Shown one piece after another: positions 3,083-64,000 of a stretch of 64,000 bases of DNA (its first letter is position 1; each line of letters opens with the position of its first letter). Under the pieces are notes generated by a model. That model saw only the letters and a program-made list of their open reading frames with translations. It did no database searches and was not told the DNA's origin. The stretch lies in assembly GCA_002718195.1 (NCBI GenBank), contig PBDU01000005.1, positions 3,638 to 67,637 on the forward strand. The letters are read 5' to 3'. This stretch comes from Methanobacteriota archaeon. Lineage in GTDB: Archaea > Thermoplasmatota > Poseidoniia > Poseidoniales > Poseidoniaceae. The translations under genes were made by a program, and so were the position numbers.

Positions 3083-4480
3083 GTGTTTCTCATTTTTGGC
3101 AGTGATTACAGGGCATCACAGATTGCAAAGTGGTCTGCCAAAAGAAGGACAACAAGACTGGTTTCTTTAAGCCAGGACTTAGATTTGGAACAAGAATTCG
3201 AGAATTGTGAAATTCTAGCGCTGCCAAGTCCAATTAGGCTTGACTCAATGCCGATGCCTTCAATTCAGCCAGAACTAATACTAGTTGTTCAAACAAATAT
3301 GATTGAGGATGAAGAACCAATTGAAGAAATCAAACAAAAATGGCCAGATGCATTTGTTTTGACTCATCATGAACTATCTGATTTATCCACAGGAGAAATA
3401 ATCGATGTTACTCAACTGTACCTTAATGCGGTTAAGGATAGGATTCGTTCATTTGAGAGGAAAGCAGGTGCAGCGGTGATTGAGAACTACCTTGAAGGGC
3501 TTGATGCTGGTTCAAAGGTATCCATAATTTGTCACGATAATCCTGATCCAGATGCACTAGCGAGCGGTTTGGCTGTTCAGAAATTAGTAGAGTTTTACGG
3601 TCACGAAGCGAAAATATATCACGGTGGCTTGGTCGAACACCAACAAAATAGAGCAATGAAAAATTTGCTTGAAATTCCACTGAATAGAGTAATAATGTCC
3701 TGGGAGATTGATGACATCATTACAAATTCTAACTGTATAATTACAGTTGACTTCCATCGTTCTGGGGCAAATAATTTCCTTCCTGAAGAGGTGGTTCCAA
3801 ACATCATTCTAGATCACCATACTGCAACCGAGGAAGTAACTGCAGATGTGTCGATGCTGAGACCAGAATTTTCAGCCACATCAAGCTTAGTTGCAAGTTT
3901 ATTCATGCAATTAGGGGTTCCAATGGATGCTAGAATTGCTACAGCCTTGGCTTTTGGAATAAAGACCGACACATTGGGTTTCTCAAGAACTTTCAATCCA
4001 GTTGATATTAGGGCACTTTCGTGGTTGAATGCTTGGGTTGACCCTGAATTGATGAAATCAATAGAATCACCACCTAGGTCAAGAGATACACTCCAATCCT
4101 TCGTATCTGCTTTTACAAATATGAAGGAAATCCAAGGAGTCCTTCTCGTCCCAATCAACGAATTATCAAATAGGGACGCGCTTGCTCAAATCGCAGATTT
4201 CCTGATGTCGACAGAAGAAATTGACACGGTAATCGCTTATGGTCCAAGAGATGGTAAAATCATCCTTTCGGCAAGAACAGAATCGGAGACACAACATCTT
4301 GGTCGTGTTTTGGGAAGCAGATGGCCGAATGGCAGAGCAGGAGGACACAGAAGTTTCGCAGGTGGTCAGGTACCATATTCTGAAATTCAAGAATCGGTTA
4401 CCCCTGAGAGCGATATAGAGGCTATGGATTTGATGCATAAGGAGTTATCCATCCTATTTGCGGGTGATGAGGATGAGTGA
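3083..4480 (+). CDS. DHH/DHHA1 family phosphoesterase with an N-terminal degenerate Rossmann (TrkA-N-like) region
   Basis: HDNPDPDA, TVDFH, ILDHH, GIKTDT and GGH motifs; about 140-aa N-terminal extension. Confidence 0.88.
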   Translation: MFLIFGSDYRASQIAKWSAKRRTTRLVSLSQDLDLEQEFENCEILALPSPIRLDSMPMPSIQPELILVVQTNMIEDEEPIEEIKQKWPDAFVLTHHELSDLSTGEIIDVTQLYLNAVKDRIRSFERKAGAAVIENYLEGLDAGSKVSIICHDNPDPDALASGLAVQKLVEFYGHEAKIYHGGLVEHQQNRAMKNLLEIPLNRVIMSWEIDDIITNSNCIITVDFHRSGANNFLPEEVVPNIILDHHTATEEVTADVSMLRPEFSATSSLVASLFMQLGVPMDARIATALAFGIKTDTLGFSRTFNPVDIRALSWLNAWVDPELMKSIESPPRSRDTLQSFVSAFTNMKEIQGVLLVPINELSNRDALAQIADFLMSTEEIDTVIAYGPRDGKIILSARTESETQHLGRVLGSRWPNGRAGGHRSFAGGQVPYSEIQESVTPESDIEAMDLMHKELSILFAGDEDE

Positions 4481-5657
4481 ATCTCCGACGATAGATATTG
4501 GAGATAATATCCGTTTGTTGGGAACTGCACACGTCGCAAGTGCTAGTGTTGCAGCAGTAAAAGAACAAGTTGAGTTATTCAAACCAGATGTAATTGCGGT
4601 TGAATTGTGCCAAAGCAGACATTCAGCACTACTGAGCGAGAGAAGGCTAGACAGGGAAGGCTTGTTGAAAGTTATCAAGGAAGGAAAGGCACCTATGGTC
4701 CTTCTTCAATCAATGTTAGCTAGTGAACAAAGAAGACTAGGAATGGATGAAGGTGAGCAACCTGGGGCAGAAATGCTTGCAGCGGTTAATGTTGCAAAAG
4801 AGCAAGAGTTAGATGTTGAATTAGTTGATAGAGATATCCAAACTACGCTGAGAAGAGCCTGGAGGGAGATGAGATTTATTGAAAAAATAAAGATTGTTTT
4901 TTCCCTTGCAAGCGATGATGATGAAGAAGATGAAGAGGAAATTGACCTTAATGAGATGTTATCTAATTCTGATTTACTTACCAGCATGATGGAAGATTTA
5001 CGCGAATTCTCTCCTGGAGCAGGAAAGGTTCTAATCGATGAGAGAGATCAATTCATCGCCTCTAAAATTCAATCTATAGGTCGGGAAAAGAAAGTTCTGG
5101 CAGTCTTAGGTGCTGGACACCTCTCAGGCGTAGAGGATATAATCAAAAATCAGAAGGAAACTAAGCCAATATCAGAATTGAATAAATTGCCTGAGAAAAG
5201 GCTTCGCTCAACAATTTTGAAGTGGATGTTCCCAGTTTTGATTTTCAGCCTGTTTGGATATTTTGCCTACACCGGTGATTGGGACCAAGCGATTGATTTG
5301 TTCACTGTATGGACAGTTGCCAATGCAATTCTTGCCGCAATTGGTTGTGCACTTGCAAGAGGACATCCTTTAGCAATACTTACTGCAGCTTTGGCTAGCC
5401 CGATAACCTCACTAAATCCTATGCTTGCTGCAGGATGGTTTGCTGGTTATGTGCAAATGAGAATCAAAGAACCATCTGGAGAAGACCTTGCAGAATTTTT
5501 GCGATTAGAAGAAATAAAATCATTCTGGACTAACCCTGCGGGACGTGTTTTGATGGTAACTGCATTAACTAATTTGGGATCAATGTCAGGTCCGTGGGTA
5601 GCTGCAATTGGCTTTGTTTGGATGACTGAAAAACTTCAGTCAATTGGACTGTTGTGA
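4473..5657 (+). CDS. TraB/GumN (PrgY-like) family protein with C-terminal TM segments
   Basis: LLGTAHV, VELC..R, DRDIQTTLRRAW, LIDERD and AVLGAGHL motifs; ATG at 4473 overlaps the upstream stop. Confidence 0.9.
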   Translation: MSESPTIDIGDNIRLLGTAHVASASVAAVKEQVELFKPDVIAVELCQSRHSALLSERRLDREGLLKVIKEGKAPMVLLQSMLASEQRRLGMDEGEQPGAEMLAAVNVAKEQELDVELVDRDIQTTLRRAWREMRFIEKIKIVFSLASDDDEEDEEEIDLNEMLSNSDLLTSMMEDLREFSPGAGKVLIDERDQFIASKIQSIGREKKVLAVLGAGHLSGVEDIIKNQKETKPISELNKLPEKRLRSTILKWMFPVLIFSLFGYFAYTGDWDQAIDLFTVWTVANAILAAIGCALARGHPLAILTAALASPITSLNPMLAAGWFAGYVQMRIKEPSGEDLAEFLRLEEIKSFWTNPAGRVLMVTALTNLGSMSGPWVAAIGFVWMTEKLQSIGLL

Positions 5658-9126: not shown

Positions 9127-12100
9127 TGCCTAGAAGAGATGACATAGAATCGATTCTCGTTCTTGGAAGCGGTCCAATTAAGATAGGTCAAGCAGCAGAA
9201 TTTGATTTCTCAGGTTCTCAAGCAGTACGGGCTTTGAGGGAAGATGGATACAAAGTCATTCTTGTAAATTCAAACCCCGCTACAATTCAAAATGACCCTG
9301 AAATGGCTGACGTAGTTTACATTGAGCCATTACTTGCTGATACTGTGAGAAAGATTCTAGAAAAAGAAAAACCAGATGCAATTCTTGCTGGAATGGGTGG
9401 GCAAACTGCTCTCAATATTGCTAGTGAACTTGCACACGATGGTTCGCTAGATAGGATAGGGGTGGAATTGATTGGTTCGGACCTTGATGCAATTGACAAA
9501 GCTGAAGACAGGGATTTGTTCAACAAAGTATGTGAATCAATAGGTTTGCCGATTAGTGAAGCAATAGCCTGTAATTCAATGGAAGAAGTCATAGCAGCCT
9601 CCAAGGAGATAGGTTCTTGGCCTCTTCTGATTAGACCAGCATTCACTCTAGGTGGATTAGGAGGAGGAACTGCTTATGACCTTGGTGAGTTAATTGAGAT
9701 CTCGACGCTTGGATTAAGGAATTCAAGAATTGGTCAGGTATTGATTGAAGAATCAATTCTTGGCTGGCAAGAACTTGAGTATGAAGTTATGAGAGATGGC
9801 GCTGACAATGCAACAATTGTCTGTACCATGGAAAATATAGATCCGATGGGCGTTCATACCGGGGAATCGGCGGTCGTAGCTCCTCTTCAATCATTCAGTG
9901 ATTCTGATCACCAACAACTAAGAGATTATGCTCTTGCTCTAATCAGAAAGCTAGATATCAAAGGTGGTTGTAATGTTCAGTTTGCATTCAACCAAGCAAC
10001 AGGAGAGATTCGAGTAATCGAAGTAAATCCTCGTGTGTCAAGATCTTCGGCATTAGCGAGTAAGGCAACAGGTTATCCAATTGCAAGAATGGCAGCAAAG
10101 ATAGCGGTTGGTTACACATTGGATGAGTTGCCAAACCCGATTACTGGTGAAGGAACAACCGCGGCATTTGAGCCAACATTAGATTACTGTGTAGTGAAGA
10201 TTCCAAGATGGCCATTTGACAAATTCCGTACTGCTGATAGAGTGCTTGGAACAAGCATGAAGTCCACTGGCGAAGTAATGGCAATAGGGAGGTCATTTGA
10301 GGAAGCTTTCTTGAAAGCATGGGCTAGCCTTGAGCAAGGAATCCCTCACCCAAGACCACTAACTAGAGCAGATGAGTCGGATGGGGAAGATTTCGACGAG
10401 AGAGCAAAACAACAACTGCCAGAAGAGACACTAATCGATTGGTTGAAAGTGCCGACTGATAGAAGGTTGTCTGCCCTACTAGAAGCATTCAGAAGAGGTT
10501 GGACAATCGATCAAATAAATGACGTAACCTCCGTAACAAAGTGGTTCTTGAATGGTTTCAAGAACATAATAGATTGTGAAAATGAAATAAGAAATTCTGG
10601 TATTCAGCCTTCACAAATATCTGAAACACAAATGTCAAAATGGAAATCTCTAGGCTTTTCAGATGGTTATATTGCTGACGCTCTAGCCAATTTCCCGCCA
10701 ACTGGACCTAAATCCTTGGATTCTGAATCAGATGAAGATGCTGTAATCTCAAGGAGACATCAACTAAAGATTCATCCAAAATATAGAATGGTAGATTCTT
10801 GTGCTGCAGAATTTGCTGCTAAAACTCCGTATTATTATTCGACTTACGAGCCAAACTCCGCTTTAGGAGTTGACCTTGTTCCAGGAATTGCAGAACGTGT
10901 TCAGCAGACCATGGTCGCTATAGGCTCAGGTCCAATAAGGATAGGACAGGGCATTGAGTTTGACTATGGATGTGTACACGCAGTGCATGCGATAAGAGAT
11001 GCAGGGAAAACTGCTGTTTTAATCAATAATAATCCAGAAACAGTATCCACTGATTTCGACACCTCAGACAGGCTTTACTTTGAGCCTCTTACCTCAGAGT
11101 ATACAACTGAAGTACTACTGAGGGAACAAGCAGATGGAATTTTGCTACAGTTTGGAGGGCAAACTGCAATTAATCTAGCAGAGCCAATTAAATCCAGAAT
11201 TCCTTTGATGAGAGAATTTGGGTTTGATTTGAAAATATTAGGGACAAGCTATGATTCTATAGACGAAGCTAGTGATAGAGAAAGGTTTGAAGCATTCGCA
11301 AAGAGAATCGGAATAAGGATGCCAATTGGATCGACTGGCTATACTCCAGACGATGTAAGAAAAGCAACCCATGAGATTGGCTTCCCTGTTTTGATTCGCC
11401 CATCATATGTTTTGGGTGGAAGAGGAATGGAGATATTATCTAATCAAAAGCAACTTGATGCTTATCTTGAAGAAGCATTTTTTGCACCTGACAGACCACT
11501 CCTAGTTGACGAATATCTCGGTCACGCAATCGAACTAGATGTTGACGCAGTTAGCGATGGCAAGACAGTACTTGTCGGTGCAGTAATGGAACATCTAGAA
11601 GAGGCAGGAATCCACTCTGGAGACTCAACCTGTTTCATCCCACCACAAACGATTTCAGACAAAACAATTGCCACTGTAGAAGAGCAAACAAAAAGAATAG
11701 GGATTGAATTAGGAATTGTAGGGTGCTTCAATATTCAATTCGCAATTCAAGGAGAAAACATATACGTTCTAGAAGTGAATCCAAGAAGTAGTAGAACAGT
11801 TCCATTTGTTGCTAAATCTACTGGTCTGCCTCTAGCTAGAATTGCGGCTAATGTTACAATTGGCATTCCTCTATCAAAACAAGAAATCCCTGAAAGAACA
11901 ACAGAGAATGTGTGTGTGAAAGCACCGGTCTTCCCATTCATCAAATTAACAGGACTTGATCCTGCTCCAGGTCCAGAAATGAAATCAACAGGTGAGGTAT
12001 TTGGCTCCGATAAAGACCCATACAATGCTTACCTCAAAGCAAGATTAGCAACCGAAATTCCAGTCTGCAAAGAGGGTGGAGTCTACCTGACAGTAAGGGA

Positions 12101-28446: not shown

Positions 28447-28899
28447 TCAAAATCTTCCAGATGAGCCGAAGCCACCATCTCCTCTACCACTTGCAGGCAA
28501 ATCATCCTCTGAGACTTCATGGAACCTTGCAACAGGAACAGGAGCAAAGAGCATTTGTGCTACTCTTTCTCCAGCATCTAAAGTTATGGATTCTCCTTTC
28601 CCTATCCATGTTGCTAAAACCATCAATTCACCTCTGTAGTCAGAATCGATTGTACCCAGACCATTTGGCATAATCATTCCCTTCTTGCCCAGGCTTGATC
28701 TGCACCTTATCTGTCCTTCCCAGCCCTCAGGAATGGCACATTTCATTCCAGTTCTTATTAGGGTAGATTCTCCTTTAGATACTGTGGTTTCCTCTATTGC
28801 ATACAAATCCCACCCTGCTGCAAAATCACTTCCTTTTGTAGGAATTCTAGCATTATCATCTATCTTTGCCCAATAAACATCTATAATTTCCCTAGCCAT
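28447..28899 (-). CDS. dut: Trimeric dUTP diphosphatase
   Basis: AAGWDL, RSSLG, GTIDSDYRGE, ERVAQ and RGDGGFGSSG (five dUTPase motifs). Confidence 0.97.
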   Translation of the reverse strand: MAREIIDVYWAKIDDNARIPTKGSDFAAGWDLYAIEETTVSKGESTLIRTGMKCAIPEGWEGQIRCRSSLGKKGMIMPNGLGTIDSDYRGELMVLATWIGKGESITLDAGERVAQMLFAPVPVARFHEVSEDDLPASGRGDGGFGSSGRF

Positions 28900-28953
28900 A
28901 ATCCTTCGATATTGACTAAGTTCTTCTATAATTCCCTAGTAAGAAATTACATA

Positions 28954-29032
28954 ATTTCCAGTGGAAATGAGGGTAACTGATTGATTGCTTTTTAAAATGT
29001 TAATTTTTCTTTCAAAAATTTCCAATGGATTT
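28954..29032. promoter_or_regulatory. Pair of ORB-like boxes flanking an AT-rich tract (candidate oriC or operator)
   Basis: ATTTCCAGTGGAAAT followed by GAGGG (28954-28973); on the minus strand TCCATTGGAAAT (within 29018-29032); the 44 bp between them have 8 G+C. Confidence 0.5.
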
Positions 29033-29186
29033 GATTATAAGCCTGTTACAAACGATTGGGAATCCTTGCGAAGCGTGGTTGCCACCCTCGAAACAAAGCC
29101 TCAAAATGGCATGAAATAGAGAATGGTTATAACCCGTCTTGGCAGGCAATCAAAACCCGCACCGCACAGGAAATGGAGGTATCGCT

Positions 29187-30224
29187 ATGGTAATCGAGCA
29201 AACAAATTCTGGAAATGATGGAATAGACATTGATTTTACCGCTCAACACATCGAGCCGATGCTGAAAGAAAATCTGGATAGATTCGTTCTTTTCCCAATC
29301 CAACACTCAGACATATGGGAAATGTACAAACAATCTCAAGCATCATTTTGGACCGCTGAAGAGATCGATTTGTCTGAGGACATGAAAGACTGGGAGAAAT
29401 TATCTGATGATGAACAACACTTCCTAAAGCACGTTCTTGCATTCTTCGCTGCAAGCGATGGTATCGTAAATGAAAACCTAGTTGTCAATTTCGCAAACGA
29501 AGTTCAATGGGCAGAAGCTAGAACATTCTATGGGTTCCAAATAATGATGGAAAATATCCACGCTGAAACCTATTCTCTGTTAATTGACACCTACATCAAA
29601 GATGACAAGGAAAAAGACCACCTTTTCAAAGCACTAGATAGAGTTCCTTCAGTACAAAAGAAAGGAGAGTGGGCACTCCGCTGGTTATCCAGGAAGAGAG
29701 GTTCATTCGCAGAAAGATTGGTAGCATTCGCTGCTGTTGAGGGAATATTCTTTTCAGGCTCTTTCTGCGCTATCTTTTGGCTGAAGAAGAGAGGTTTGAT
29801 GCCTGGTCTGACATTCTCCAATGAACTAATCAGTAGAGACGAAGGACTACACTGTGATTTCGCTTGTATGCTTCATGAAAAGTTGCTGAAGAAGACTCCA
29901 GAAAACAGCATCCACAGAATAATATCTGAAGCAGTTAACATCGAAACCGAGTTCGTTACTGAAGCACTTCCAGTTTCTTTAATCGGTATGAATGCAAACT
30001 TAATGGAGCAATACATCAAATTCGTAGCCGACAGATTATTGGTTTCTTTGGGTGCATCAAAACTATACAATGTTGAAAATCCATTCCCGTGGATGGAGAT
30101 GATCTCAATGCAAGGAAAGACCAACTTCTTCGAGAAGAGAGTTGCTGAGTATCAAAAAGCGGGTGTTATGGATAGTACCCTAGGTTCGGTTCAACAGCGT
30201 TTCTCAATGGACGAAGATTTTTGA
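29187..30224 (+). CDS. nrdB: Ribonucleotide reductase class Ia small subunit (eukaryote/Bacteroidetes-like R2)
   Basis: [31 protein letters not shown] (radical Tyr), [14 protein letters not shown] and NFFEKRV; GGAGGT RBS before ATG 29187. Confidence 0.97.
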
Positions 30225-30274: not shown

Positions 30275-32668
30275 ATGGCAATGCAAGTGGTAAACAGACA
30301 AGGGGAAAAGGAAGACGTACGCTTTGATGCAATCCATGAGAAGTTATCTAGATTGGCTGATGGATTGAATGCTGAGTACATTGACACTGGTCTGGTTACA
30401 AAGTTGACAATTGAGGGTCTCTATGATGGAGTTACCACCAGAGAACTGGATCAATTGGCTGCTGAAACCGCTGCATCACTTGCTAGTCATCACCCTGAAT
30501 ATAGCAAGCTTGCTGCTAGAATTTGCATCGATGATTTGCACCGCTCAACCAAGGATGATTTCTCCGAGGTCATCAACGACTTGAGGAACTACATAGACCC
30601 AGAAAGCGGAGACCATGCACCTTTGATTTCTGAAGAAGTTCACGCTATCATCCAAGAAAACTCGAAAGTTTTGAACTCCTACATTGACTATTCAAGAGAC
30701 CACAATTACGATTATTTTGGCTTCAAGACCCTTGAGAGATCCTACCTCTTAAGATTGGATGGAGAGGTGGCAGAAAGACCTCAACACATGCTTATGCGTG
30801 TTGCAGTTGGTATTCATCATGAGAATTTAGAGAAAGCATTTGAGACGTATGACCTAATGTCCCAAGGTTACTTCACACACGCTACACCGACTTTGTTCAA
30901 TTCAGGTACACCTACTCCTCAGATGTCATCCTGCTTCTTGTTGACAATGCAAGACGATTCTTTACACGGAATCTATGATACTCTAAAGCAATGTGCATTA
31001 ATTTCAAAATCAGCTGGTGGAATCGGTTTGTCCATTCACCACATTAGAGCAAAGGGGTCTTACATCAAGGGTACAAATGGTCAATCAAATGGTATTGTTC
31101 CTATGCTCAGAGTATTCAATGACACTGCGAGATATGTCGACCAAGGTGGTGGAAAGAGAAAGGGATCAATCGCAATTTACATTGAACCATGGCATCCTGA
31201 CTTGATGGAATTCCTAGACTTGAGAAAGAATCACGGAAAGGAAGAAATGAGAGCTAGGGATTTATTCTATGCGCTTTGGACATCCGACTTGTTCATGGAG
31301 AGAGTTGAATCCAATGCTGATTGGTCTTTCTTCTGTCCTAATGAATGCCCAGGTCTACAAGATGCATATGGAGATGAATTCAGAGCAATGTACACCTCTT
31401 TTGAGGAACAAGGTAGAGCCAGAAAAACAGTTCCAGCAAGAGAGGTTTGGGACAAGATCGTCGAATCTCAAATAGAGACAGGAACTCCTTACATGTTGTA
31501 TAAGGACGCAGCAAATGAGAAGTCAAATCAAAAGAACTTGGGAACAATCCGCTCATCCAACCTATGTACGGAAATTATGGAATACACCTCCAAAGATGAA
31601 GTGGCTGTCTGTAACCTTGCAAGTATTGCATTGCCTAAGTTTGTCAACATGTCTACAGGAGAATTCGATCATCAAAAGTTGTACGAAGTTGCTTACCACG
31701 CAACTGGCAACCTGAACAGAGTAATCGACGTCAACTTCTACCCAGTAGAAGAGGCAAGAAATTCAAACATGAGACACAGACCAATCGGTCTAGGTGTTCA
31801 AGGTCTAGCAGACACATTTGCAATGCTAAAGATGCCTTTCGAGAGCCCGCAAGCTCAAGAATTGAACAAGCACATCTTCGAAACAATCTACTTCGCATCC
31901 TGTTCTGCAAGTAAAGATCTAGCAATCGATGAAGGGGCATACTCGTCATTCGAAGGTTCTCCTGCTAGTACAGGCGAATTGCAATTTGATCTTTGGGGCA
32001 TGAACGAGCATTCTGGACGCTGGGATTGGGATTCCTTGAAGGCAGACATAGTAAAGCACGGAATGAGAAATTCACTACTGCTTGCTCCTATGCCTACTGC
32101 ATCAACATCTCAAATTCTAGGAAATAACGAGTGCTTTGAGCCATTTACTTCCAATCTATATGTCAGAAGAACTCTATCTGGTGAATTCATTGTTCTAAAC
32201 AGACACTTGGTAAGAGATTTAATCGCAGAAGGACTTTGGGGACCTGCGATGAAGGATAACATTCTAAGAAACAAAGGTTCAGTCCAAGCAATCCCTGGAA
32301 TACCTGAACACATTAAGGATCTTTACAAGACCACTTGGGAAATCAAGCAAAAAATAGTTCTGGACATGGCTGCTGATAGAGGAGCATACATTGACCAAAG
32401 TCAATCTTTGAACATACACATGGTCGATGCCAACCCTGCTAAGGTAACATCAATGCACTTCTATGGCTGGAGAAAGGGTCTCAAGACCGGAATGTACTAC
32501 TTGAGAACAAAAGCAGCAGCAGATGCAATTCAATTTACACTAGATGCTTCCACAAAGGAAGACCAAACTGTAAATGGATTAGCAAATAGATCTGAGGAAG
32601 TCGACAGCATGGATGCAATTGCCTGTAGCCTTGATGCTCCAGATGACTGCTTGATGTGTGGAAGCTGA
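30275..32668 (+). CDS. nrdA: Ribonucleotide reductase class Ia large subunit with ATP cone
   Basis: N-terminal ATP cone, [29 protein letters not shown] and a C-terminal Cys pair CLMC. Confidence 0.98.
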
Positions 32669-43110: not shown

Positions 43111-43165
43111 ATCGTCCTTAGAATTACTTTATTTTCTGTCGGTGTATGAACAACGCACCATTTCC

Positions 43166-43180
43166 CTTATGAGTCATAAG
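43166..43180. promoter_or_regulatory. Perfect palindrome over the promoter of the giant surface-protein gene
   Basis: CTTATGA-G-TCATAAG, ending 24 nt before the likely ATG at 43205. Confidence 0.45.
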
Positions 43181-43204
43181 TGTGAGGCGCATTTGGTAAT
43201 AGCC

Positions 43205-46200
43205 ATGCGTATGCTTTCTCCATCCACCAGCGCGCAACAAAAACTTGCTATATCTGGGGCAAAACAGAAGATATCCTCACTGAGTTTGGTGACGATAATG
43301 CTTCTTTCACTATTTGCCACCATACAAATAGGAATCAACCAAGTCAGTGCAGCATCAGACCAAGATGGAGATGGTCTGACCTATGGTTTGGAGTATTTGA
43401 TGAACACAGCTCCAAATGACCCGGATTCTGATAACGATGGTCTGCCCGATGGATGGGAATGGATGCATGGTTTGGATCCTCTATCTGCTAACAACGCAGA
43501 TGGAGCGGTTGGGGACCCTGATGGAGATGGAATGTCGAATCTTCAGGAGTATACTTACCTGATGCCTAGCGGCTGGGATTCATCTAATACTCCTTCAGTT
43601 CTAGACAACGGAGTTTGGTGGAATGGCACAGTTCCAACAAATGACTGGAACGAAGAAGGTGCCCTTGTTTACAATCAACCTGCCTGTGGTAGTACTGGTT
43701 CTGATGGAACTGGTAACACTATCCTTTGTGATGAAGACCCAGTTGGAAATATCTGTACTAACGGATTTGATGACGACAAAGATGGGCTAGTAGACAGTGC
43801 TGACCCGGATAACGATGGAGACGCAGATTGTTCAAGCGATGATGATGATGGAGATGGTATTGCAGACGAGGACGTAGCCGGCTGGGACACCGATGGTGAC
43901 GGAATGCCTGACGGTTGGGAAGTTTCATACGGTCTAAACGCAACCTCAGCATCTAACGATGATGGAGCAAATGGAGACCCCGATGGAGATGGATTGAACA
44001 ACCTCTATGAATACGTGAATCCTTCATGGACAACATTGTGTAACGGTGTTCCTTGCTGGAATCCCGGACCTAACGGTCAAGTTACAGAAACCATTTCACC
44101 ATGTGACCCTGTTACAGGCATCGGTCCTGGTGGATGCGCAACCCTAACTGCGGAAGTAGATGGAATAACCTCGACCAATCCCACTCGTGCAGACACTGAC
44201 GGTGATGGTCTGAATGATTCTTACGAGGCTCTTACTCTGCTGACTGACCCTACATCTTCGGATACCGATAGCGATGGAATAAGCGATGGAGTAGAGGTTG
44301 GCTCAGCCTACGGACAGCCAGCCCAATCCAGCAATCCAAGAGATAACAACACTGATGGGGACGCATTTGATGATGGAGATGAGGATAAAAACGGAAACGG
44401 TATCTTGGATGCAGGAGAGACAGACCCGACAAGAAGGGAGGATGCCGGAGATTTCGATAATGATGGAATCCAAAACTGGGAAGAAAACTTGTCATGTACT
44501 GCTTGGGATATTGCAGATACAGACTTTGGTGGAGTAAATGACGGAGATGAAAGAAATGTTAGCCACGGAACAGACCCGTGTGATTCTCTTACCGACTTCA
44601 AGACCACTATTTCTAACTGGAATTCATTTACCTCACAGTTAACTTTGACAGATGGATCTGGGTTCAATCCTTCAGGAGGTGTCGGTTGGTATAATTCAAG
44701 TGGAACCTGGAGTGCATTTTCCTATATTGCCGTAGTAAATAATGTACTACAACAGGTATCTCCTGGACCCGCAAACGGTGTTACAGAAGTAGCAAATAGA
44801 AACGGTTCTTTCTGTCATACATCTGCGACAAATGATGGGACAATTTCTACAACCCGAAATTACTGTGATGATGATTATACAGATGGAGATGGCGATGGAC
44901 TTGCTGACTGGGAAGAACTTCTTGGTACATATGGATGGTTCAGTAATCCCACTCTAGTCGACACCGATGCTGATGGAGTTCCTGATTTCCAAGAAGCAGT
45001 TTTGGATAACACCGACCCTAATGATCCGTGTTTGAATCTTTTAGACTCTGACGGAGATGGACTGAACAATTACTTCGAAAACTCCACTGGTTGTACCCTT
45101 GATTCCTTAGGAATTACAAATGGTTCAAGCGATATATGGGTTACTGGATGGGACCAGATAGATACCGATAACGGTGGAGTTGGAGACAGAGATGAATACT
45201 TTGATGGAACCAATCCTGAAAACGATCCGAGTGATGATTTACTTCCCGATGACTTTGATGGCGATGGTATACCGGATGCTGTTGAAAATGCATCCAGCAC
45301 AGACTGGAGAAATCCGGATACTGATGGTGGAGGTATGATGGATGGAGCAGAATGCCCTGAACAATTTTGGTTCTTCAACTGCGTAGGAGCGCCGTTTAAT
45401 CCACTAGATCCAACCGATGACCAGGTCAATAACGACATTATTTTCTGGGCGAATAATACCACTGGAACGGTTGACATTGAACAGCCACATTATTGGAGAC
45501 TAACCACCAGTGATTTCTACACAGGTTCGACCTATGCACATCTCAATAGCGTCCATCCTCCAGCAGAAGTTATCACTCCTATCACTAATCTTACCAACTT
45601 GGCTGATTTGAGTTTTGCAAATGATACGGTGACATGGAACATAGTATACAACTTCCCAATTTCTACAGGGAATATACCTCAACCCTACTATCTCTCCAAC
45701 ATTTCGTATTGGACCGATGCAGGGGCAGTGGTTCTAAGGGCCAATGATACCCACACTCTGTCGCTTGAGACGGGTTCTCTCGAGATACTTCTCACTCAAC
45801 AACCAGAGTACTACTTCGACTGGGCAACTCTTGCATCGACAACAATCGGACACACCAACTCTACATACGCAACAATCCTTCCAGCTGAATTCACTAACCA
45901 ATCATTCGCTGAGTCGATGGTAATGAACATCTCGAACGGCGTAGTTACAGATGCAGGTGCTCTTGATGCCTACTCCAAAGCCTCTGCATTAGCTGATTTC
46001 CTTGTCAACGGGAATGCAACAACAGAATTCAAGAGAAATTACAATTCTAGTAACCTACCTGGTGATGCTGATTTGACAATGCATATGCTGAATGTGGCAA
46101 AGGAAGGAACGTGTGCAGAATTTGCGACAACTTTCGTCACAATGGCTAGATCATTGGGTCTTCCTGCTAGATTGGTTACAGGTTACCAAGATGGTATTTG

Positions 46201-49200
46201 GACAGGAACTGGTTATGCTGTCTATGCTAACGCAAGAACAACCTGGGGAGAAGTAAGACTTCAACAAAACTCAGCAAATGGGAATACCGACTTGGGTTGG
46301 ATTCCGTTTGAATCATGCCCTGAGCCAGAAAATCTGACGATAGCAAATCAAACTATTAACACCCTGACTTGGGATAGAGATGGCTCTCAAGAAGTCTCAG
46401 TAAGCGGTCAATTACTTTACGCAGACAATTCCACACCGATACAAGATATACCGCTTGTTGGATATCTTGTTAGGACCGATGATGTAGATGGAGTTCCTGG
46501 AGATGCTGCTATCCCAGGTAGAGAATTCGGTTCGATAATTACAGATGCAAACGGAAATTTCACAATAAACGGGACCCCCAGTAACCCAGTTTTGCCAGGA
46601 TTTACCCAGATTGTTATCAATCACAAACAATCTGGCTATGTGGGTGATGATGGCATAGCCTTCGATCAGATAATCAACGTGACAGATGATTCTGAAATAG
46701 TTCATGTAGCACCAAATGCAGTTAACTCCCCAGTTGTTGGAGCAGGTGCTACTACAATAGTTAGTGGTATTTTACAACTAGAGTCAAATCCACAATTGCT
46801 GGATGATTATTACCAAGGTTTGTCCGTTTGGCTGAGTTTCACATCTAGTGTAGATGGTGCTCAAAATTTGACAGGTATTGTTGAACAAGATGGTTCATGG
46901 CAGATTGAAGTTTCACTTGATCCGCTTGAAACAAAAACAAACCTGTCTGCTCAACTAGGATTCTCCGGTTGGACTGATACGGGTCAAGTTTTTGCCTCGC
47001 CAGTACACATTAGAGATTCTACACAACCAATCAATTTGGACATTAGAGATGCACCTAACTTGACTGCAACGATAGAAGGTCCAGGAGCCAACAATAGTGT
47101 GATAGATCTTGATGACACTGTTTACATCAACGGAACAGCAGTTTCGTTTGGAGCAACACCACAAAATATGGAAGGAATGCTTTCATTCAGAATGAGAGAA
47201 AATGATAGTGGTGGAGATTTCATCGAGATATTCAACCAATCTGTAAACGGTACCTTCTCAATTCCATATTTCCTCAACTCAACTCTAATTCCAGTCGCCG
47301 CTGGTGAAATAGAGATGATACTAAGATTCTATCCAACTCTGTATGAAGCTACAGACGATGCAAACCTTTCAACTGGTGCACCTTACGCTCTAAGAGGAGT
47401 ATTGACATATGAAGTGGATGCTCAATCACAGCTCAGAGGTGGACCAGCGAATTTATTGATACAGCTATACGATCATAGAGGTGCGTCTGTGGGTCTAAAT
47501 GTTCCTGGAAATTATGACTTTATCTTCAACAATTCATGGGTTAATACAACTGTTGATCCTGCTTCGACACTCATTAACTTAGCATTTGATATCGATGCAA
47601 ATATGTTTGCTGGCGATTATCCATTCGACATTTCGTTTAATGGTTCAGACCTATATGTTCCAAACTCCGATTCAACAACTGTTAGAGTAATGGCTGAAAT
47701 TGGCTGGAACCTAACTTCTGCAGACGATTGGGTGCACATTGGCAATTCAACCTTCATCACAGGTGACTTCTATGACGCTGTACATAACACAAGAGTCGTT
47801 GGAAATGACACATTGTTGACATTGGTTCTACTCACAGAAGAAGGACCGATTGACCTTGCATTAGGTCAACTCGACAATACTACAGGTGAATTCAACCTTA
47901 CAGCAAAGATGCCTACAACGCTACCTTCAGGAGTATACACTCTAGAATTAGCAGCAGATTTCCTATCACTTGCACCTCCAGGTGGTGCATACTACACATG
48001 GGTTGATACTGCGACACCACCTTCTCCTCCGAGTTCGATATCAATTGAAATCGGAATTGAATCGGAAGTCGTCATCGTTCCTGAACAGGAACAAATGCTC
48101 ATCCTTTCAGGTGATACTATGGATCTGCGTGCTAAGATATTCGACATAGCAGACATGAGTAACGTTTCCGGCGCTACAGTGGAATTCATTTTCGATTATG
48201 GTGGTTCTAATACATCGATTGGCACAGTTATATCAGATGCAGAAGGAAATGCAACTCTTCAATGGACGGCCACTGACATCGGTCCTGGATATTATGACTT
48301 ACAAATTCTAGTAGCAGACGATGTATCTGCACCATTGGTTGCAGGAAATACGAGGAGGACAGGAAACTCTACTCTTGTGAACATGACTGTTCAATCAACT
48401 ACCAACGTGGTATTTGATGTGGCTCCAAATAATATCACTGCTGGTCAGAATTTCAATATTCAAGGAAGAGTAGTCGATGGTTTGAATGCTTCTCGCCCAA
48501 TGGTGTCAAGAGTTCAGGTCACCGCTTTCTGGGAGGATGAACCTGATGAGATTCTGGTAAGGAACACCTTTACTGCGCTAAACGGTTCGTTTAATTTGAG
48601 TGTTCCAACTGATACAGAAAACGATGGAACCACAAGGGGAGTGCGCTCGTTAGTCGTAGATGTAGTTCCGGACTCTTCGCCTTTCTACCTAGGTGGTAGA
48701 GCAAATACTTCGATGCTTGTTTTCGGTGTGACACAATTTGAGAACTTGAATCCTATCAATCCAGTAATTATCAACCGTGGCGAGACTGTAAATTTGAGTG
48801 CGAAATTGGTTGAAGCCACTGACCTATTTGCTCCTCTGGGTGGATATCCAGTTGCAATTATGTTCCATGAATCATGGGTTGCGGATACAACTACCACTGG
48901 AGATGGTTTTGCTAATACTAGTTTTGTTCTCGATGCCAATCACCCACTTGGCTTGGTCACAGCTACCTGGATGTTCAACGGTTCCTCTGATCTAAGAGCG
49001 GGTATTGCTAACTTGAGCACTGTTACTGTACGCTCGGTTACCTTCATGGTGATAGATGACATTGCTTCAAACCCAATTGCTGGTGATTCGTTCAACATAT
49101 CTGGTAGAGTGACATCAGACAATGGATCGGGAATGGAAACAAGAGATGGTATGGTATTACCAAGCAATGTACTGTTCAGAATTAACGGAGAGCCTGCAGG

Positions 49201-58735: not shown

Positions 58736-61700
58736 TCATTGGTTGTAAACTTCCCACTTCTGTGCGCTCTCATCCCAGTAAGATAGCGTACCATCTGCCG
58801 CTTGGGACCAGTGAACACCATTCTCTTCCCACTGTTGTGGTTCTACTTGTGCGCTCTGCTCTAAGTTAGGTAAATCTTTAGTTGGCTCTTCTTGAGCTGC
58901 GAATGCTTCAGATTGTAGGTCAATATTTTCTTGAGTTTGTGCAAAACTTTCCTCGATATCATTTCCATTTCTTCCTACAACTAGAACAGCTGCTAGAATT
59001 CCAATCACTAGAAGTACAGCGATTGTAATGAATAAGCCTGAGTTGGAAGATTCCTCTTCTAACTCACTTCTAAGTGCATCATCAGGATAGGCGTCGAACT
59101 CATCAGCAACCCCGTCATTGTCCCTATCGGAATATATGCTAGCATTATCTGGGAAAGCATCTTCTGCATCATTAACTCCATCACCATCAGAGTCCTTCTG
59201 CTCCAAAGCACATCCATTTTCATCAACGATTGATCCCGTAGCCGTATTTGTGCAAAGGTCTAGGTTGTCTGAAACTCCATCACCATCTGTGTCTAATTGT
59301 GTTGTAGAGCATCCTTCGATGTTAACAACTTCTCCTTCCGGAGTTTCTGGGCATTGATCTTGTGCATCATTGATATTGTCTTCATCAGAATCCAGTTGGC
59401 TGTCGGAACATCCCTCTTGGTCAACCTGCTCTCTTTCTGGAGTAGCGAAACAGATGTCTAGAGCATCGCTAATTCCATCATTGTCTGCATCAAGTTCTGT
59501 TTGCGAGCAACCTGTGATATCAACGCCTTCACCTGCAGGTGTCATAGGACATTGGTCCTCAGCATCGTTAATTAGGTCGCCATCAGTATCCTTTTGCTCA
59601 TCTGCACATCCGTTAGAATCTATTTCTACGTCTGTTGGCGTGTATGGGCACAAATCATCAGCATCCCAAACTCCATCCATATCAGCGTCTGATTCTGTTG
59701 CCGAACAGCCAATACCGTTCACGTTCTCGCCTTCTGTAGTGTTTGGACATTGGTCTCTTGAATTGTCAATACCGTCGTTGTCAGAATCTAGTTGGTAAGG
59801 TGCACAACCTGCATTATCCACTGCAGCGTTTAATGTCGTTGAAGGACACTGGTCATATGCATCTGCAACGCCATCTTGGTCACCGTCCTTTTCGGTATCT
59901 GAACAACCAAAGGAATCAACAGATTCACCTTCTGGGGTGTTTGGACAAGCATCTGCGTTATTCTTGATGCCGTCTTCGTCATCATCTAATTCGAATTCAG
60001 CACATCCTACCGAATTAACGACGTTTCCACTTGGTGTGTCCGGGCAGTAATCAGGATTGGTTCCTGAAATATTATCCCCATACCCATCTCCATCACGATC
60101 CGACCATTGTGTACTATCGTTAGGATAAGCATCTGCGTTATTTCCTGCAGCATTGTCTCCATAGCTGTCTCCGTCAGAGTCTTTCCATTGAGTTGAGTCT
60201 TGTGGGAATGCATCAGGGTCATTGCCTGCTTGGTTATCTCCATATCCATCACCGTCAGAATCTTCCCACTGGGTTGAGTCTTGAGGGAATGCATCAGCAT
60301 TGTTTCCTGCAGGGTTATCTCCGTATCCATCTCCATCAGAATCTTCCCATTGTGTTCCATCGGTAGGGAATAGGTCAGGTGAGTTTCCAGTTGCGTTGTC
60401 TCCGTATCCATCACCATCAGTATCTTCCCATTGTGTCCCATCGTTAGGGAATTGGTCTCCATTTGTGCCGGCTGGGTTGTCGCCATATCCGTCACCGTCT
60501 GAGTCTGTCCATTGAGAAGGATCAGCAGGCCACAAGTCTGGGTTGTTTCCGTTTGGATTATCCCCGTATCCATCTCCATCGGTATCTGCCCATTGGGTTG
60601 AATCTTGAGGGAATTCATCAGAGTTGGAATAACCAGGATTGTCTCCCCATCCATCTCCATCAATGTCGCTCCATTGGTTAGCATCAGTTGGGAAGTGGTC
60701 TGGATTCGAGCCGTTCATGTTGTCTCCATATCCATCACCATCAGTATCCTTCCACTGTGAAGAATCGTATGGGAAATCATCTATATTATCATTGAATCCA
60801 TCAAAGTCAGAATCTCTCTGATTAGAAGCACATCCATCTGCATCAACTACTGCTCCGGAGTCAGTTCCTGGACACAAATCATCCTCATTTATTACTCCGT
60901 CTCCGTCATTGTCGAAGTTCAGCACAAAGCAATCAGTTTCCCCAATTAGTTGAGTTCCAGATTGAGAATATAGATAGGTTGAGGCACAATAAGTACCACT
61001 AGCATTTGGTGTTGAATAACTCCAAGTTCCCAAGCTCTGTATTGTGCTTGTCGCAGTGAAGGTGGTCAGATTACTGGATGCTATTGTAGCATTTCCAGAG
61101 TCATGAATCTTGATTTGGTATTGATAGGTATCACCAGAGACAAGGTCCCATCCACTAACAGTGACATCGTTAGTGCTAGATGTTGCACTAGTTGAGTAAC
61201 TATCAATTCTGACTGAAGGCAATTGTGGAATGAAATATTCTTCATGATAACCGATAACATCTCCAGTAGAATTGTAAGCTACTGCATAAAATAAGTGACT
61301 ACTCATTGTGGTTGGAGCAGTCCAACTGACATTCAGTGTCTGGCTAGTTGAATTTGTGGTTATGTTTTTCCAATTTGCATCAACGATATTTCCGCTAGAG
61401 TCCTCAACTACGTACAGAATGTCGATAGAGTCTCCACTAGTAACGTTCGTGAGATACAAAAATGCATTCGTAGATGATTGAACGACTGATTGTAATTTCT
61501 CGTAATAATATCCATCACCATCTGCGGATAACATGGTGTTTCCGGTAGAGTCGTAAAGATAGGCAATCATCACGAATACCCCCTCACATTCTGTAATCGG
61601 GTAAGTTACATTGTAGTATTCAACTGTATTATTGGCTGTTATAGTAATTGGGTTGTAAGTGTCGATTGTATAATTTGGCCAGGTGCTTACAACTCTATTC

Positions 61701-64000
61701 TCTATCTCTAGTTCAAGTTGATAGGAGGAGCCAACTGTGAGTCCAGTCATCATAATCGAAGAGACATTCTTATCGAGCTTTGTGACCTCGACAGTTTCGA
61801 ATGCTTGCCCACCTCCAGGGTTATTGGTTGTAATCTCGATATCGTAAACATTGGTTGCACCACTGTATCCATAAACTTCGATGAAAGAAGTAATGTTTGA
61901 CTGAGCGGTCACTGACATAGATTCTAGATTTGAAGTTCCTCCAGAACTGTCAAGATAACCACCTGTCGCATCATCCCAATTGGTATCGAGATCACCATTT
62001 GAGTGAGTGAATGTAATATTCACGTAATAGGTTACTCCCTGAACCAAGTATACCTCAAAATAATCTGTATCTGAACTACTATCAATTGACAGACCTGTGC
62101 AAGATACTGGTAAAACACTTGCTTGGGTCGCAGTGGTAGTTAGGTCATTTGGTTCTAATATGTCTGGATTTAAGGTTGCATTACCTGTACAATTACTCAG
62201 AGGAGAGGATCCATTACCTCCTCCTCCACCGGTACCATTTCCGCTAGACCATTGAACATTGAATTTGTACAAGTCCAGGGTATAGTTGATTTCACCTACA
62301 TTAGCTGCAAGGTACAGGATAACTGGTGATCCGGGGTATGTGGTTGTGGAATTTGTTGTTACTGTCAAAGTCCCTGAGCCGGTGTCAGTGTCTATGAAAT
62401 TGACAATTCCATTATCTAGAAGATAAATGTCTACGTCATTTGTAACCGTAGTCCCGTTAGAATATGTTGTTGATGTAGGGAATGTCAGAACTGCAGTCAG
62501 TCCTTCGTTTGAGTTTAGAGAGACTCGTAGCGCATCTACCGAATCAGCAGTATCGCTCATGAACCCACTGCCAGAAAGCGAGCCAGAGAAAATGAAGTTT
62601 GTCAGTGTCGAGGTATTGGCTAAATTTGCACCAAGATCTCCTCCAGTTCCCATGTCATTTTGTGTTTGGAATGTTTGTGAAAACTTCCAGATGGTAAGGT
62701 TCCAATCAACATAACCTGCGTTAACAAAAATGCCTAGAATAATTGGTCCAGAAGGCTGGAAGGTGGTGCCGTTTGTTGAAAGTGATAATGTGTTTGAACC
62801 GCTGTAATCTTCGTCGATTAAGTTAATGTTAGCATCTGCGATAACTGCTTCAACATCGTTTGTAATCGTGGTTCCATTCGGAGCAGTGCTCGTTTGGTTG
62901 AAAGTAATCTGTATGGCAACTCCCTCATTTTGTCCGATTGAGATAGTCATTATATCTTCGATATCATTTAGTTCATCAATATACCCAGTTCCACTCAAAG
63001 AGGTCGAGAAGTTAAAATTCGGAATTGACGATATAGATTGTCCAGTGTACGAAGGCAAGTCCGCATTGGTGTTCATGTCGTTTTGAGTTGTCCCATTTGA
63101 TGAGCTTGTGGTCCATCCACTCCATGTTCCAGTATAGGTGCTGCCTACGGTTCCATCGGTTCCAGCGCTACCATAACTTCCTGTTCCGTATGGAGCACCG
63201 CCGTTACCTGCCCATCCCTCGTCAGCAAAAACAGTTCCAGTTGGTATGTTGAGATTTGAAGTGCTGCTTGCACGGATATCAACAATTCCTCCGGAGCCAC
63301 CGCCACCGCCGTTTCCTCCGTCATACAGTCCGATACATACGCCTGTACAGTCTCCATCAGCGCCATCTCCACCAAATCCTCCATCTGCAGCTATCTCAGC
63401 AGATGATCCAACGTTCACTTGATTTGCTCTCATGATGATGCTTCCACCTGAACCACCGCCGGCTCCTGAACCACCATTTCCTGAGCCATTTTGATATCTG
63501 TAACCGCTTTCACCATCATACCCAGAAGCATCCACAGTTCCATTGATATTGATAACATCAGCATAAACTACAATTCTTCCACCACCAGATCCTCCCGCAG
63601 AAACTAGGTTACCGCTGGAATCGAAGACTGAACCTCCGTTAGAGCCGGTTTCATTTCCAACTCCATACGAAGAACCACCGTTGCTACTGGCAGCACCCCC
63701 TGATCCACCAGAACCGTAGTGACCTGCTCCGCCCGCACCATCTCCTCTCCAAGCAGAAGATAGAGTGACAGATGTTCCAACTCCTTGTGTGTTGGTTGGG
63801 TAATCAATTGCTGTAATGGTTGCTCCGTACTCCACTGTCAGAGTATTTACGGTTAGAACAAGGTCTCCTGTTGCAACGATTTCACCGCATGAACTTATCC
63901 CGCAGCCTATGTATAAATTGTCATATGATTGGTTGCCACTAAGATATGTTGTGTTTAGAATTGTTGAATTTGTTGTCCCAACACCTGGTGGTGAGAACTT
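58736..64000 (-). CDS. Large surface protein (5' end beyond the window): Gly-rich domain, PPC-like domains, thrombospondin type-3-like repeats, TM, aromatic cytoplasmic tail
   Basis: The frame is open from 63835 to the window edge (KFSPPGVG..VEYG); QND/PND..D.DY PPC-like motifs; 27-aa and 33-aa DxDxDG repeats; TM GLFITIAVLLVIGILAAVLVVG. Confidence 0.9.
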   Translation of the reverse strand, partial: KFSPPGVGTTNSTILNTTYLSGNQSYDNLYIGCGISSCGEIVATGDLVLTVNTLTVEYGATITAIDYPTNTQGVGTSVTLSSAWRGDGAGGAGHYGSGGSGGAASSNGGSSYGVGNETGSNGGSVFDSSGNLVSAGGSGGGRIVVYADVININGTVDASGYDGESGYRYQNGSGNGGSGAGGGSGGSIIMRANQVNVGSSAEIAADGGFGGDGADGDCTGVCIGLYDGGNGGGGGSGGIVDIRASSTSNLNIPTGTVFADEGWAGNGGAPYGTGSYGSAGTDGTVGSTYTGTWSGWTTSSSNGTTQNDMNTNADLPSYTGQSISSIPNFNFSTSLSGTGYIDELNDIEDIMTISIGQNEGVAIQITFNQTSTAPNGTTITNDVEAVIADANINLIDEDYSGSNTLSLSTNGTTFQPSGPIILGIFVNAGYVDWNLTIWKFSQTFQTQNDMGTGGDLGANLANTSTLTNFIFSGSLSGSGFMSDTADSVDALRVSLNSNEGLTAVLTFPTSTTYSNGTTVTNDVDIYLLDNGIVNFIDTDTGSGTLTVTTNSTTTYPGSPVILYLAANVGEINYTLDLYKFNVQWSSGNGTGGGGGNGSSPLSNCTGNATLNPDILEPNDLTTTATQASVLPVSCTGLSIDSSSDTDYFEVYLVQGVTYYVNITFTHSNGDLDTNWDDATGGYLDSSGGTSNLESMSVTAQSNITSFIEVYGYSGATNVYDIEITTNNPGGGQAFETVEVTKLDKNVSSIMMTGLTVGSSYQLELEIENRVVSTWPNYTIDTYNPITITANNTVEYYNVTYPITECEGVFVMIAYLYDSTGNTMLSADGDGYYYEKLQSVVQSSTNAFLYLTNVTSGDSIDILYVVEDSSGNIVDANWKNITTNSTSQTLNVSWTAPTTMSSHLFYAVAYNSTGDVIGYHEEYFIPQLPSVRIDSYSTSATSSTNDVTVSGWDLVSGDTYQYQIKIHDSGNATIASSNLTTFTATSTIQSLGTWSYSTPNASGTYCASTYLYSQSGTQLIGETDCFVLNFDNDGDGVINEDDLCPGTDSGAVVDADGCASNQRDSDFDGFNDNIDDFPYDSSQWKDTDGDGYGDNMNGSNPDHFPTDANQWSDIDGDGWGDNPGYSNSDEFPQDSTQWADTDGDGYGDNPNGNNPDLWPADPSQWTDSDGDGYGDNPAGTNGDQFPNDGTQWEDTDGDGYGDNATGNSPDLFPTDGTQWEDSDGDGYGDNPAGNNADAFPQDSTQWEDSDGDGYGDNQAGNDPDAFPQDSTQWKDSDGDSYGDNAAGNNADAYPNDSTQWSDRDGDGYGDNISGTNPDYCPDTPSGNVVNSVGCAEFELDDDEDGIKNNADACPNTPEGESVDSFGCSDTEKDGDQDGVADAYDQCPSTTLNAAVDNAGCAPYQLDSDNDGIDNSRDQCPNTTEGENVNGIGCSATESDADMDGVWDADDLCPYTPTDVEIDSNGCADEQKDTDGDLINDAEDQCPMTPAGEGVDITGCSQTELDADNDGISDALDICFATPEREQVDQEGCSDSQLDSDEDNINDAQDQCPETPEGEVVNIEGCSTTQLDTDGDGVSDNLDLCTNTATGSIVDENGCALEQKDSDGDGVNDAEDAFPDNASIYSDRDNDGVADEFDAYPDDALRSELEEESSNSGLFITIAVLLVIGILAAVLVVGRNGNDIEESFAQTQENIDLQSEAFAAQEEPTKDLPNLEQSAQVEPQQWEENGVHWSQAADGTLSYWDESAQKWEVYNQ
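59195..59986 (-). repeat. Eight tandem 33-aa (99-bp) Cys-pair TSP3-like coding repeats
   Basis: Units such as DGDQDGVADAYDQCPSTTLNAAVDNAGCAPYQL in exact 99-bp register. Confidence 0.9.
60038..60766 (-). repeat. Nine tandem 27-aa (81-bp) TSP3-like coding repeats
   Basis: Units such as DSTQWEDSDGDGYGDNQAGNDPDAFPQ in exact 81-bp register. Confidence 0.9.

Follow-up and report, generated by a model that had tools for sequence, protein, structure and literature searches.

Does a pair of boxes resembling archaeal origin recognition boxes (ORBs), located between the divergent genes for dUTPase (dut) and ribonucleotide reductase (RNR; nrdB and nrdA), mark an origin of replication, or does it serve the genes that it separates? 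The boxes, here box 1 and box 2, lie in a 64,000-nucleotide stretch of contig PBDU01000005.1 (assembly GCA_002718195.1), the whole of which is called the window in this text. Its source is a member of the Poseidoniaceae (MGIIa), a family of Marine Group II archaea. Marine Group II is among the most abundant archaeal groups of the ocean, and we know of no cultured representative of the host group. The question bears on how archaea coordinate the supply of deoxynucleotides (dNTPs) and the production of the replisome with initiation. A preliminary description of this DNA had proposed either an origin (oriC) uncoupled from cdc6, or an operator through which the initiator Orc1/Cdc6 couples dNTP supply to replication. 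Our analysis supports this interpretation in part. The identification of box 1 as an ORB is strongly supported. The operator reading fits the evidence best: with a probability that we put at about one half, box 1 is a non-origin Orc1/Cdc6 operator beside the dut and nrdBA promoters that would couple dNTP supply to the initiator. An oriC at this site is not supported.

A strongly supported origin recognition box upstream of nrdB

Box 1, termed ORB1 in the following, consists of the dyad core TTCCAGTGGAAAT and the G-string GAGGG (28969-28973), which points toward nrdB; the segment ATTTCCAGTGGAAAT at 28954-28968 is a perfect 7-1-7 palindrome of 15 bp (coordinates of the features are collected in Table 1). 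ORB scores were counted as matches out of 21 to TTCCAGTGGAAATGAAGGGGT, a score of at least 15/21 being expected about once per shuffled 64 kb. The published ORB consensus reads CTTCCAGTGGAAACGAAAGGGGT for archaea and GTTCCAGTGGAAATGG-AGGGGT for the Methanomassiliicoccales, which are methanogenic relatives of Marine Group II (PMC4153887, table 2). Box 1 carries the G-rich string 2-3 nt 3' of the dyad and on one side only, as an ORB does, in a form that is shortened in the window (GAGGG vs AAGGGG).

Box 2 is a mini-ORB that contains the core and no G-string, and it is significant in the window, its score being reached in 2 of 300 shuffles. Besides these two boxes, the 64 kb contain no exact TCCANTGGAAA site, and exact matches to TCCAnTGGAAA are likewise restricted to 28957-28967 on the plus strand and 29019-29029 on the minus strand. 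From base composition, about 0.15 TCCANTGGAAA sites would be expected per 64 kb by chance, and a second one within 200 bp at about 5e-4. Ranked by AT content, the tract between the boxes belongs to the top four of all 44-bp stretches in the window. The layout reported in the preliminary description, with box 1 on the plus strand followed by GAGGG, box 2 facing it on the minus strand and 44 bp with 8 G+C between them, was thus recovered in full. Of the two ORB-like boxes, box 1 is a conserved full ORB and box 2 a core-only mini-ORB that is not conserved.

The distribution of the boxes was then followed in 19 nrdB loci of MGIIa relatives (L001-L019), as the preliminary description had proposed for the dut-nrdB spacer. 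In 10 of the 19, box 1 recurs between -211 and -233 relative to the nrdB ATG and always on the nrdB strand, and in these ten loci it is the top or the only strong ORB match in 7-13 kb; the chance of an ORB so placed, estimated from shuffles, is about 3e-4 per locus. The spacer around ORB1 is otherwise unalignable between clades, and the box is retained in four or five separate clades. Conservation is asymmetric: the right half, CAGTGGAAA with (A)AGG, is retained while the left half of the palindrome drifts, and the G-string of the relatives, AAGGGG or AAGGT, is always on the nrdB side. Because of this asymmetry, the box is more consistent with a polar ORB bound by a monomer than with a symmetric operator. 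The consensus match, together with the conservation of place and orientation, including the asymmetric G-string, makes box 1 a strongly supported ORB. Contigs that other samples yielded for the same species share 99.9% identity with the window and differ in the spacer by a single change, 28956 T>C (CTCCAGTGGAAAT), which yields CTCC as in the ORBs upstream of mcm described below and is compatible with the consensus.

Box 2 did not share this conservation, no counterpart being significant in 7 of the 10 loci carrying ORB1 (L001, L002, L004, L005, L008, L012, L014). Significant inverted second boxes are confined to the window, at -169, and to the clade of L013, L017 and L019, at -89, where the box lies just upstream of the proximal TATA-like element and 126 bp from ORB1.

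ORB1 lies beside predicted promoter elements

Three TATA-like elements can be read in the 287-bp spacer between dut and nrdB, which is the control region common to dut and nrdBA. The putative dut promoter element AATTATAG and the dyad end of ORB1 are separated by 22 bp. Toward nrdB, box 2 ends 5 bp before a distal element TTATAAGCC, for which TCATAAGCC or TTATAG-type elements are found at the equivalent place in most relatives, including those without ORB1, and which may function as an nrdB promoter element. Initiator boxes are accordingly found close to core promoter elements on both sides, the elements themselves being predicted. The proximal element GGTTATAACCC is kept as TTATAGGC or TTATACAC in all relatives, and its distance to the ATG equals that of the TTCATAGRCC element upstream of mcm.

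Between the proximal element and the nrdB start lies a conserved leader, a homologue of GGCAAACAAAATCCAGCGCG, with a Shine-Dalgarno sequence; in relatives the sequence 3' of the proximal element reads AAAATCCAGCGCG. In L013, L017, L019 and L010, a hairpin (GGAGGT...ACCTC) carries the proximal element in its loop. Its 3' arm could also pair with the Shine-Dalgarno sequence, a hint at a long regulated leader; the hairpin has no Rfam match. A search of the spacer against Rfam for riboswitches or known RNAs gave no match at the gathering threshold or at E<=10. The motif GGAAATGGAGG beside the nrdB start resembles half an ORB and was set aside, being accounted for by the Shine-Dalgarno sequence. 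Metatranscriptome contigs are few and short; all of them lie within nrdB and none extends into the spacer.

Further ORB loci in Poseidoniales

A metagenome collection scanned with TTCCAGTGGAAANNAAGGGG yielded 80 ORB loci, 14 of which adjoin an Orc1/Cdc6 gene and were used as stand-ins for accepted predicted origins. Adjacent ORB pairs in the 80 loci have the (-,+) arrangement, with the G-strings outward, in 25 cases, with spacers of about 90-290 bp, mostly 120-260 bp; the (+,-) arrangement occurs in 10 cases, nearly all of them in clusters of at least three ORBs.

A gene for a 436-aa beta-CASP/MBL nuclease is present in 8 of the 80 loci. In six of these, the gap upstream of the gene holds two inverted ORBs with a separation of about 145-165 bp, and the other two (L121, L133) have one strong match. 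The nucleases form two groups, one from Thalassarchaeaceae/Marine Group II MED-G33 (MGIIb) and one that includes Candidatus Poseidoniaceae (MGIIa). To the latter belongs locus L216, with a G+C content of 0.41 as in the window, whose left ORB is letter-for-letter identical to the nrdB ORB of L002; because of this identity, a protein that binds the ORB of the ferredoxin/nuclease locus should bind the dut-nrdB box as well. In the MGIIb locus L205, the sign of the GC skew changes at the ORB pair and coincides with a flip of the gene strand, and in L225 (MGIIa) the large-scale skew and strand signals are weaker and of a different sign. Given this coincidence and the different pattern of L225, skew was given little weight either way. 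On this comparison of contigs, the ORB pair between ferredoxin and the beta-CASP nuclease is the best candidate for a chromosomal origin of Poseidoniales, in MGIIa as in MGIIb.

Single ORBs were also found upstream of mcm. Their G-string points toward the gene, and a TTCATAGRCC TATA-like element follows after about 20 nt; about 60 nt further from the gene than the mcm ORB there is a weaker TTGCAGTGGAAG box. Another ORB occurs in the 5' part of an orphan gene of 813-866 aa without Pfam match in marine contigs (L101:102-2699, L152:2-2440, L153:2032-4584). Other genes flanking ORBs in the metagenome sample have miscellaneous functions according to Pfam, with no further replication genes among them. 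None of the Poseidoniales ORB loci has an orc1 gene in the flanks that were fetched, which in the case of the ferredoxin/nuclease pair means within 10 kb. Poseidoniales hold several ORB loci without orc1 in the fetched DNA, and the dut-nrdB box is of the single-box, promoter-proximal kind.

Operator, origin or another role

We favor the operator reading because a single full ORB is conserved, because it stands about 20 bp from the dut TATA-like element, and because lone ORBs also occur at mcm promoters. Purified Cdc6 binds a single full ORB with high affinity, and a single mini-ORB is unbound in vivo (PMC1904270), so that the function would rest on ORB1, with box 2 as no more than a species-specific helper. 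One Orc1/Cdc6 monomer would sit on box 1, with its winged helix at the dyad and the initiator-specific motif of its AAA+ domain at the G-string, which would place it upstream of both the dut element, by about 20 bp, and the distal nrdB element, by about 60 bp; in the species of the window, a second and weaker molecule might occupy box 2 beside the distal element. Occupancy would follow the amount and nucleotide state of the initiator and could in this way tune transcription of the dUTPase and RNR genes to replication initiation, sanitation of dUTP included, and the mcm ORB would put the helicase in the same circuit. As would be expected of an initiator regulon, the box of L002 recurs unchanged at the origin candidate L216, and ORBs are present at mcm loci. 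Binding by Orc1 and any effect on transcription are predictions from sequence. More tentatively, Orc1/Cdc6 of Poseidoniales may double as a transcription factor with a small regulon, of at least mcm and dut/nrdBA, that acts through single promoter-side ORBs, which we regard as quite possible.

Several observations weigh against such an operator. ORB1 is degenerate or absent in 9 of the 19 MGIIa relatives, all of which still have nrdBA: L010, L016 and L018 retain GAGTGGAAAC and have lost the G-string, L003 and L006 show traces of the box, and in L007, L009, L011 and L015 nothing is recognizable. Because the box is missing or degenerate in relatives with nrdBA, any regulation through it would be dispensable, and this loss stands against the fit of the operator proposed in the preliminary description, which is otherwise favored by the conserved lone ORB, its promoter-proximal place and the mcm parallel. 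In Pyrococcus abyssi, genome-wide chromatin immunoprecipitation on microarrays found Cdc6/Orc1 at oriC only (PMC1904270), and an initiator Orc1 acting as transcription factor is therefore without experimental precedent. The geometry also differs from that at mcm. There the G-string is turned to the TATA-like element at about 20 nt, and at dut-nrdB it is the dyad side that looks toward the dut element, with the G-string directed at the distal nrdB element about 60 nt away. Finally, the ferredoxin/nuclease pair was seen in related contigs and is not tied to the genome of the window, the sample lists checked for such a tie having shown no overlap.

The dut-nrdB site might instead be an MGIIa origin, primary or secondary and dormant, that is unlinked to orc1/cdc6 and at which Orc1 on boxes 1 and 2 loads MCM on the AT tract. 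Its architecture, a full ORB and a mini-ORB inverted around a 44-bp tract that is among the richest in A+T of the window, is origin-like and speaks against the operator; L013, L017 and L019 likewise have two inverted ORB-like boxes, both neighboring genes, which diverge, act in the supply of DNA precursors, ORB sites unlinked to orc1 are normal in Poseidoniales, and archaea with several origins exist (PMC3607249). There is, on the other hand, only one full ORB here, and its partner is not conserved in 7 of the 10 relatives that carry ORB1. The pair of the window is (+,-), with the G-string inward, opposite to the prevailing (-,+) pairs, and the 41-44 bp between its boxes are far shorter than the spacers of most such pairs. 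Near 29 kb, GC skew and gene strand go with the local transcription units; past nrdBA, at 33 kb, they revert, the skew being negative again at 33-38 kb, and genes at 0-14 kb point toward the dut-nrdB site, so that the 64-kb window shows no lasting change in strand composition or in the direction of genes there. Conservation of the site as oriC throughout the lineage was not seen either, ORB1 being kept in 10 and degenerate or absent in 9 of the 19 MGIIa relatives, and the ferredoxin/nuclease site with its two full ORBs is conserved in both MGIIa and MGIIb. An origin at dut-nrdB is in our judgment unlikely. The claim of an oriC uncoupled from cdc6 is not supported for the dut-nrdB site, given the unconserved partner, the atypical orientation, the missing strand switch, the loss of the box in several lineages and the better candidate elsewhere; its accompanying observation that the window has no cdc6 proved correct, no Orc1/Cdc6 gene having been found in the 64 kb by Pfam scans, gene calls or tblastn with six metagenomic Orc1 proteins.

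The identity of the binder and the age of the box offer two further alternatives. A protein other than the initiator, either a second, fast-evolving Orc1/Cdc6 paralogue or another winged-helix regulator, could use the box as an ordinary operator of dut and nrdBA. The perfect 15-bp palindrome of the window core would suit a dimeric regulator, Poseidoniales have two Orc1/Cdc6 paralogues (PMC3914693), and Sulfolobus Orc1-2 is reported to be a non-initiator transcription regulator (PMC9738581). Across the relatives, however, the left half of the palindrome is not conserved and the G-string is, which is the signature of a polar ORB, and ORBs of the candidate origin have exactly this sequence; we consider such a binder distinctly improbable. 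Very improbable in our view is a functionless, decaying relic, left for instance by a former origin or by an ORB-carrying insertion that arrived with nrdBA. The decay in several lineages, three of which lack the G-string and six of which retain little or nothing of the box, and the shortened G-string of the window itself would agree with it, but the box is kept at 15-21/21 in four or five clades with an unalignable spacer, and the sole within-species polymorphism of the spacer is the consensus-compatible T>C. An NrdR-type operator was also considered. No NrdR-like box was visible by eye in the spacer, no formal scan having been made, in agreement with the earlier statement that the boxes are unlike the bacterial NrdR box.

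Gene content of the locus and the window

Pfam assignments confirmed that the boxes separate divergent dUTPase and RNR genes, as had been described, and identified nrdB and nrdA as encoding a class Ia RNR. The true nrdB start is the ATG preceded by GGAGGT, and the TTG at 29139 is not the start. The divergent dut-nrdB layout is preserved in 15 of the 19 relatives. In L006, L010, L016 and L018, dut has moved away from nrdB, the relocated dut being without ORB and the box on the nrdB side without G-string. The nearest NrdB loci in the genome collection are all from Poseidoniaceae or Poseidoniales; beyond the order, the closest NrdB proteins are from Bacteroidota (Hymenobacter, Pontibacter), with about 70-74% identity, which points to horizontal transfer of this class Ia RNR or to a shared eukaryote-like subclass. 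In two relatives, nrdA was matched as two pieces, with a gap of about 100 nt in L013 (7103-9645) and over about 280 nt with overlapping query residues in L017 (5855-8572), which may reflect a frameshift, a small insertion or faulty assembly.

Elsewhere in the window there are a DHH/DHHA1 (RecJ/GAN-like) gene at 3083-4480, an XPD-type helicase gene at 52658-54751, and giant open reading frames at 43142-52132 (2996 aa) and 58736-64000 (>1750 aa); no ORB lies close to any of them.

Table 1. Features of the dut-nrdB locus in the window and ORBs at related and other loci.
Feature	Locus	Position	Strand	Remarks
Box 1 (ORB1), full ORB TTCCAGTGGAAATGAGGGTAA	window	28956-28976	plus	17/21 vs consensus TTCCAGTGGAAATGAAGGGGT
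Box 2, mini-ORB, core only	window	29018-29029	minus	plus-strand ATTTCCAATGGA, minus-strand TCCATTGGAAAT
AT-rich tract	window	28974-29017		8 G+C in 44 bp, G-string side of ORB1
Predicted dut TATA-like element AATTATAG	window	28926-28933	minus	~30 nt upstream of dut ATG; read from sequence
Distal TATA-like element TTATAAGCC	window	29035-29043	plus	5 bp past box 2, ~60 bp past ORB1
Proximal TATA-like element GGTTATAACCC	window	29125-29135	plus	~60 nt upstream of nrdB ATG
nrdB leader (homologue of GGCAAACAAAATCCAGCGCG) and Shine-Dalgarno GGAGGT	window	29147-29180	plus	conserved
dut (dUTPase, 150 aa)	window	28447-28899	minus	Pfam PF00692, E 9e-27; divergent from nrdB
nrdB	window	29187-30224	plus	Pfam PF00268; ATG at 29187
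nrdA	window	30275-32668	plus	Pfam PF02867 and ATP-cone
ORB1 of relatives	L002			21/21
ORB1 of relatives	L001			20/21
ORB1 of relatives	L004, L005			18/21
ORB1 of relatives	L008			17/21
ORB1 of relatives	L012			16/21
ORB1 of relatives	L013, L014, L017, L019			15/21
Ferredoxin	L144	4483-4770	minus	
ORBs in ferredoxin/nuclease gap	L144 (gap 4771-5003)	4777; 4942	minus; plus	
Nuclease	L144	from 5004		
ORB pair between ferredoxin and nuclease	L216 (MGIIa)	1179-1500	(-,+)	21/21 and 16/21, 161 bp apart
ORB pair	L205 (MGIIb)	9541-10000		flanks 130-bp AT-rich tract, at clean gene-orientation divergence
mcm ORB, single	L222	9917-9937		16-18/21, -84 to -88 from ATG
mcm ORB, single	L223	1414-1434		16-18/21, -84 to -88 from ATG
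mcm ORB, single	L224	1413-1433		16-18/21, -84 to -88 from ATG
mcm ORB	L148	2801-2821		similar to L222/L223/L224

Significance and comparison with known systems

The ORB itself is well known. That it is conserved next to dNTP gene promoters is new in the literature searched, in which no paper linking an ORB or Orc1 to ribonucleotide reductase was found. At this locus, an RNR operon whose closest relatives outside the order are bacterial sits beside an archaeal initiator box. ORBs at the dut/nrdBA and mcm promoters would make a circuit with the initiator as regulator directly testable. In the annotation of Poseidoniales genomes, an ORB match by itself does not justify calling an origin, because several of their ORB loci have no orc1 in the fetched DNA.

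The box shares with the ORBs of oriC1-type origins (Sulfolobus oriC1, Pyrococcus oriC and the predicted origins of Methanomassiliicoccales) the same composite of 21-22 bp, a dyad TTCCAGTGGAAA with a 3' G-string (PMC4153887, table 2), and such ORBs bind one Orc1 monomer with defined polarity (PMC12141716). Unlike these origins, the dut-nrdB site has a single full ORB, which stands between two promoters, turns its G-string to the AT tract and lacks an inverted partner that is conserved; the site adjoins no orc1 gene and shows no switch of strand composition. It resembles ORB3 and ORB4 of Ca. Methanomassiliicoccus intestinalis, which are listed without assigned function (PMC4153887, table 2), as well as the mcm ORBs of Poseidoniales, in being a single ORB of consensus quality away from orc1 and from other ORBs. 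It differs from the mcm ORB, whose G-string is about 20 nt from the TATA-like element, in turning its dyad side to dut.

Two systems offer parallels for an initiator-family protein at a promoter. Sulfolobus Orc1-2 is a non-initiator paralogue that recognizes a different short promoter motif and is not known to recognize the ORB. It is reported to be DNA-damage-responsive and provides a case of a transcription regulator of the Orc1/Cdc6 family in archaea (PMC9738581). In Escherichia coli, DnaA boxes regulate nrdAB (PMC8203912), so that there, as here, an initiator site is found in the promoter region of a class Ia RNR operon, and dNTP synthesis is linked in E. coli, as it would be here, to the state of the initiator. 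The protein family (Orc1/Cdc6 vs DnaA), the motif and the transcription machinery are unrelated, and regulation has been demonstrated in E. coli and is predicted for the dut-nrdB locus. If Orc1/Cdc6 of Poseidoniales does double as a transcription factor, this would represent an archaeal counterpart of the second job of DnaA, imposed on an RNR operon with bacterial proteins as its closest relatives outside the order.
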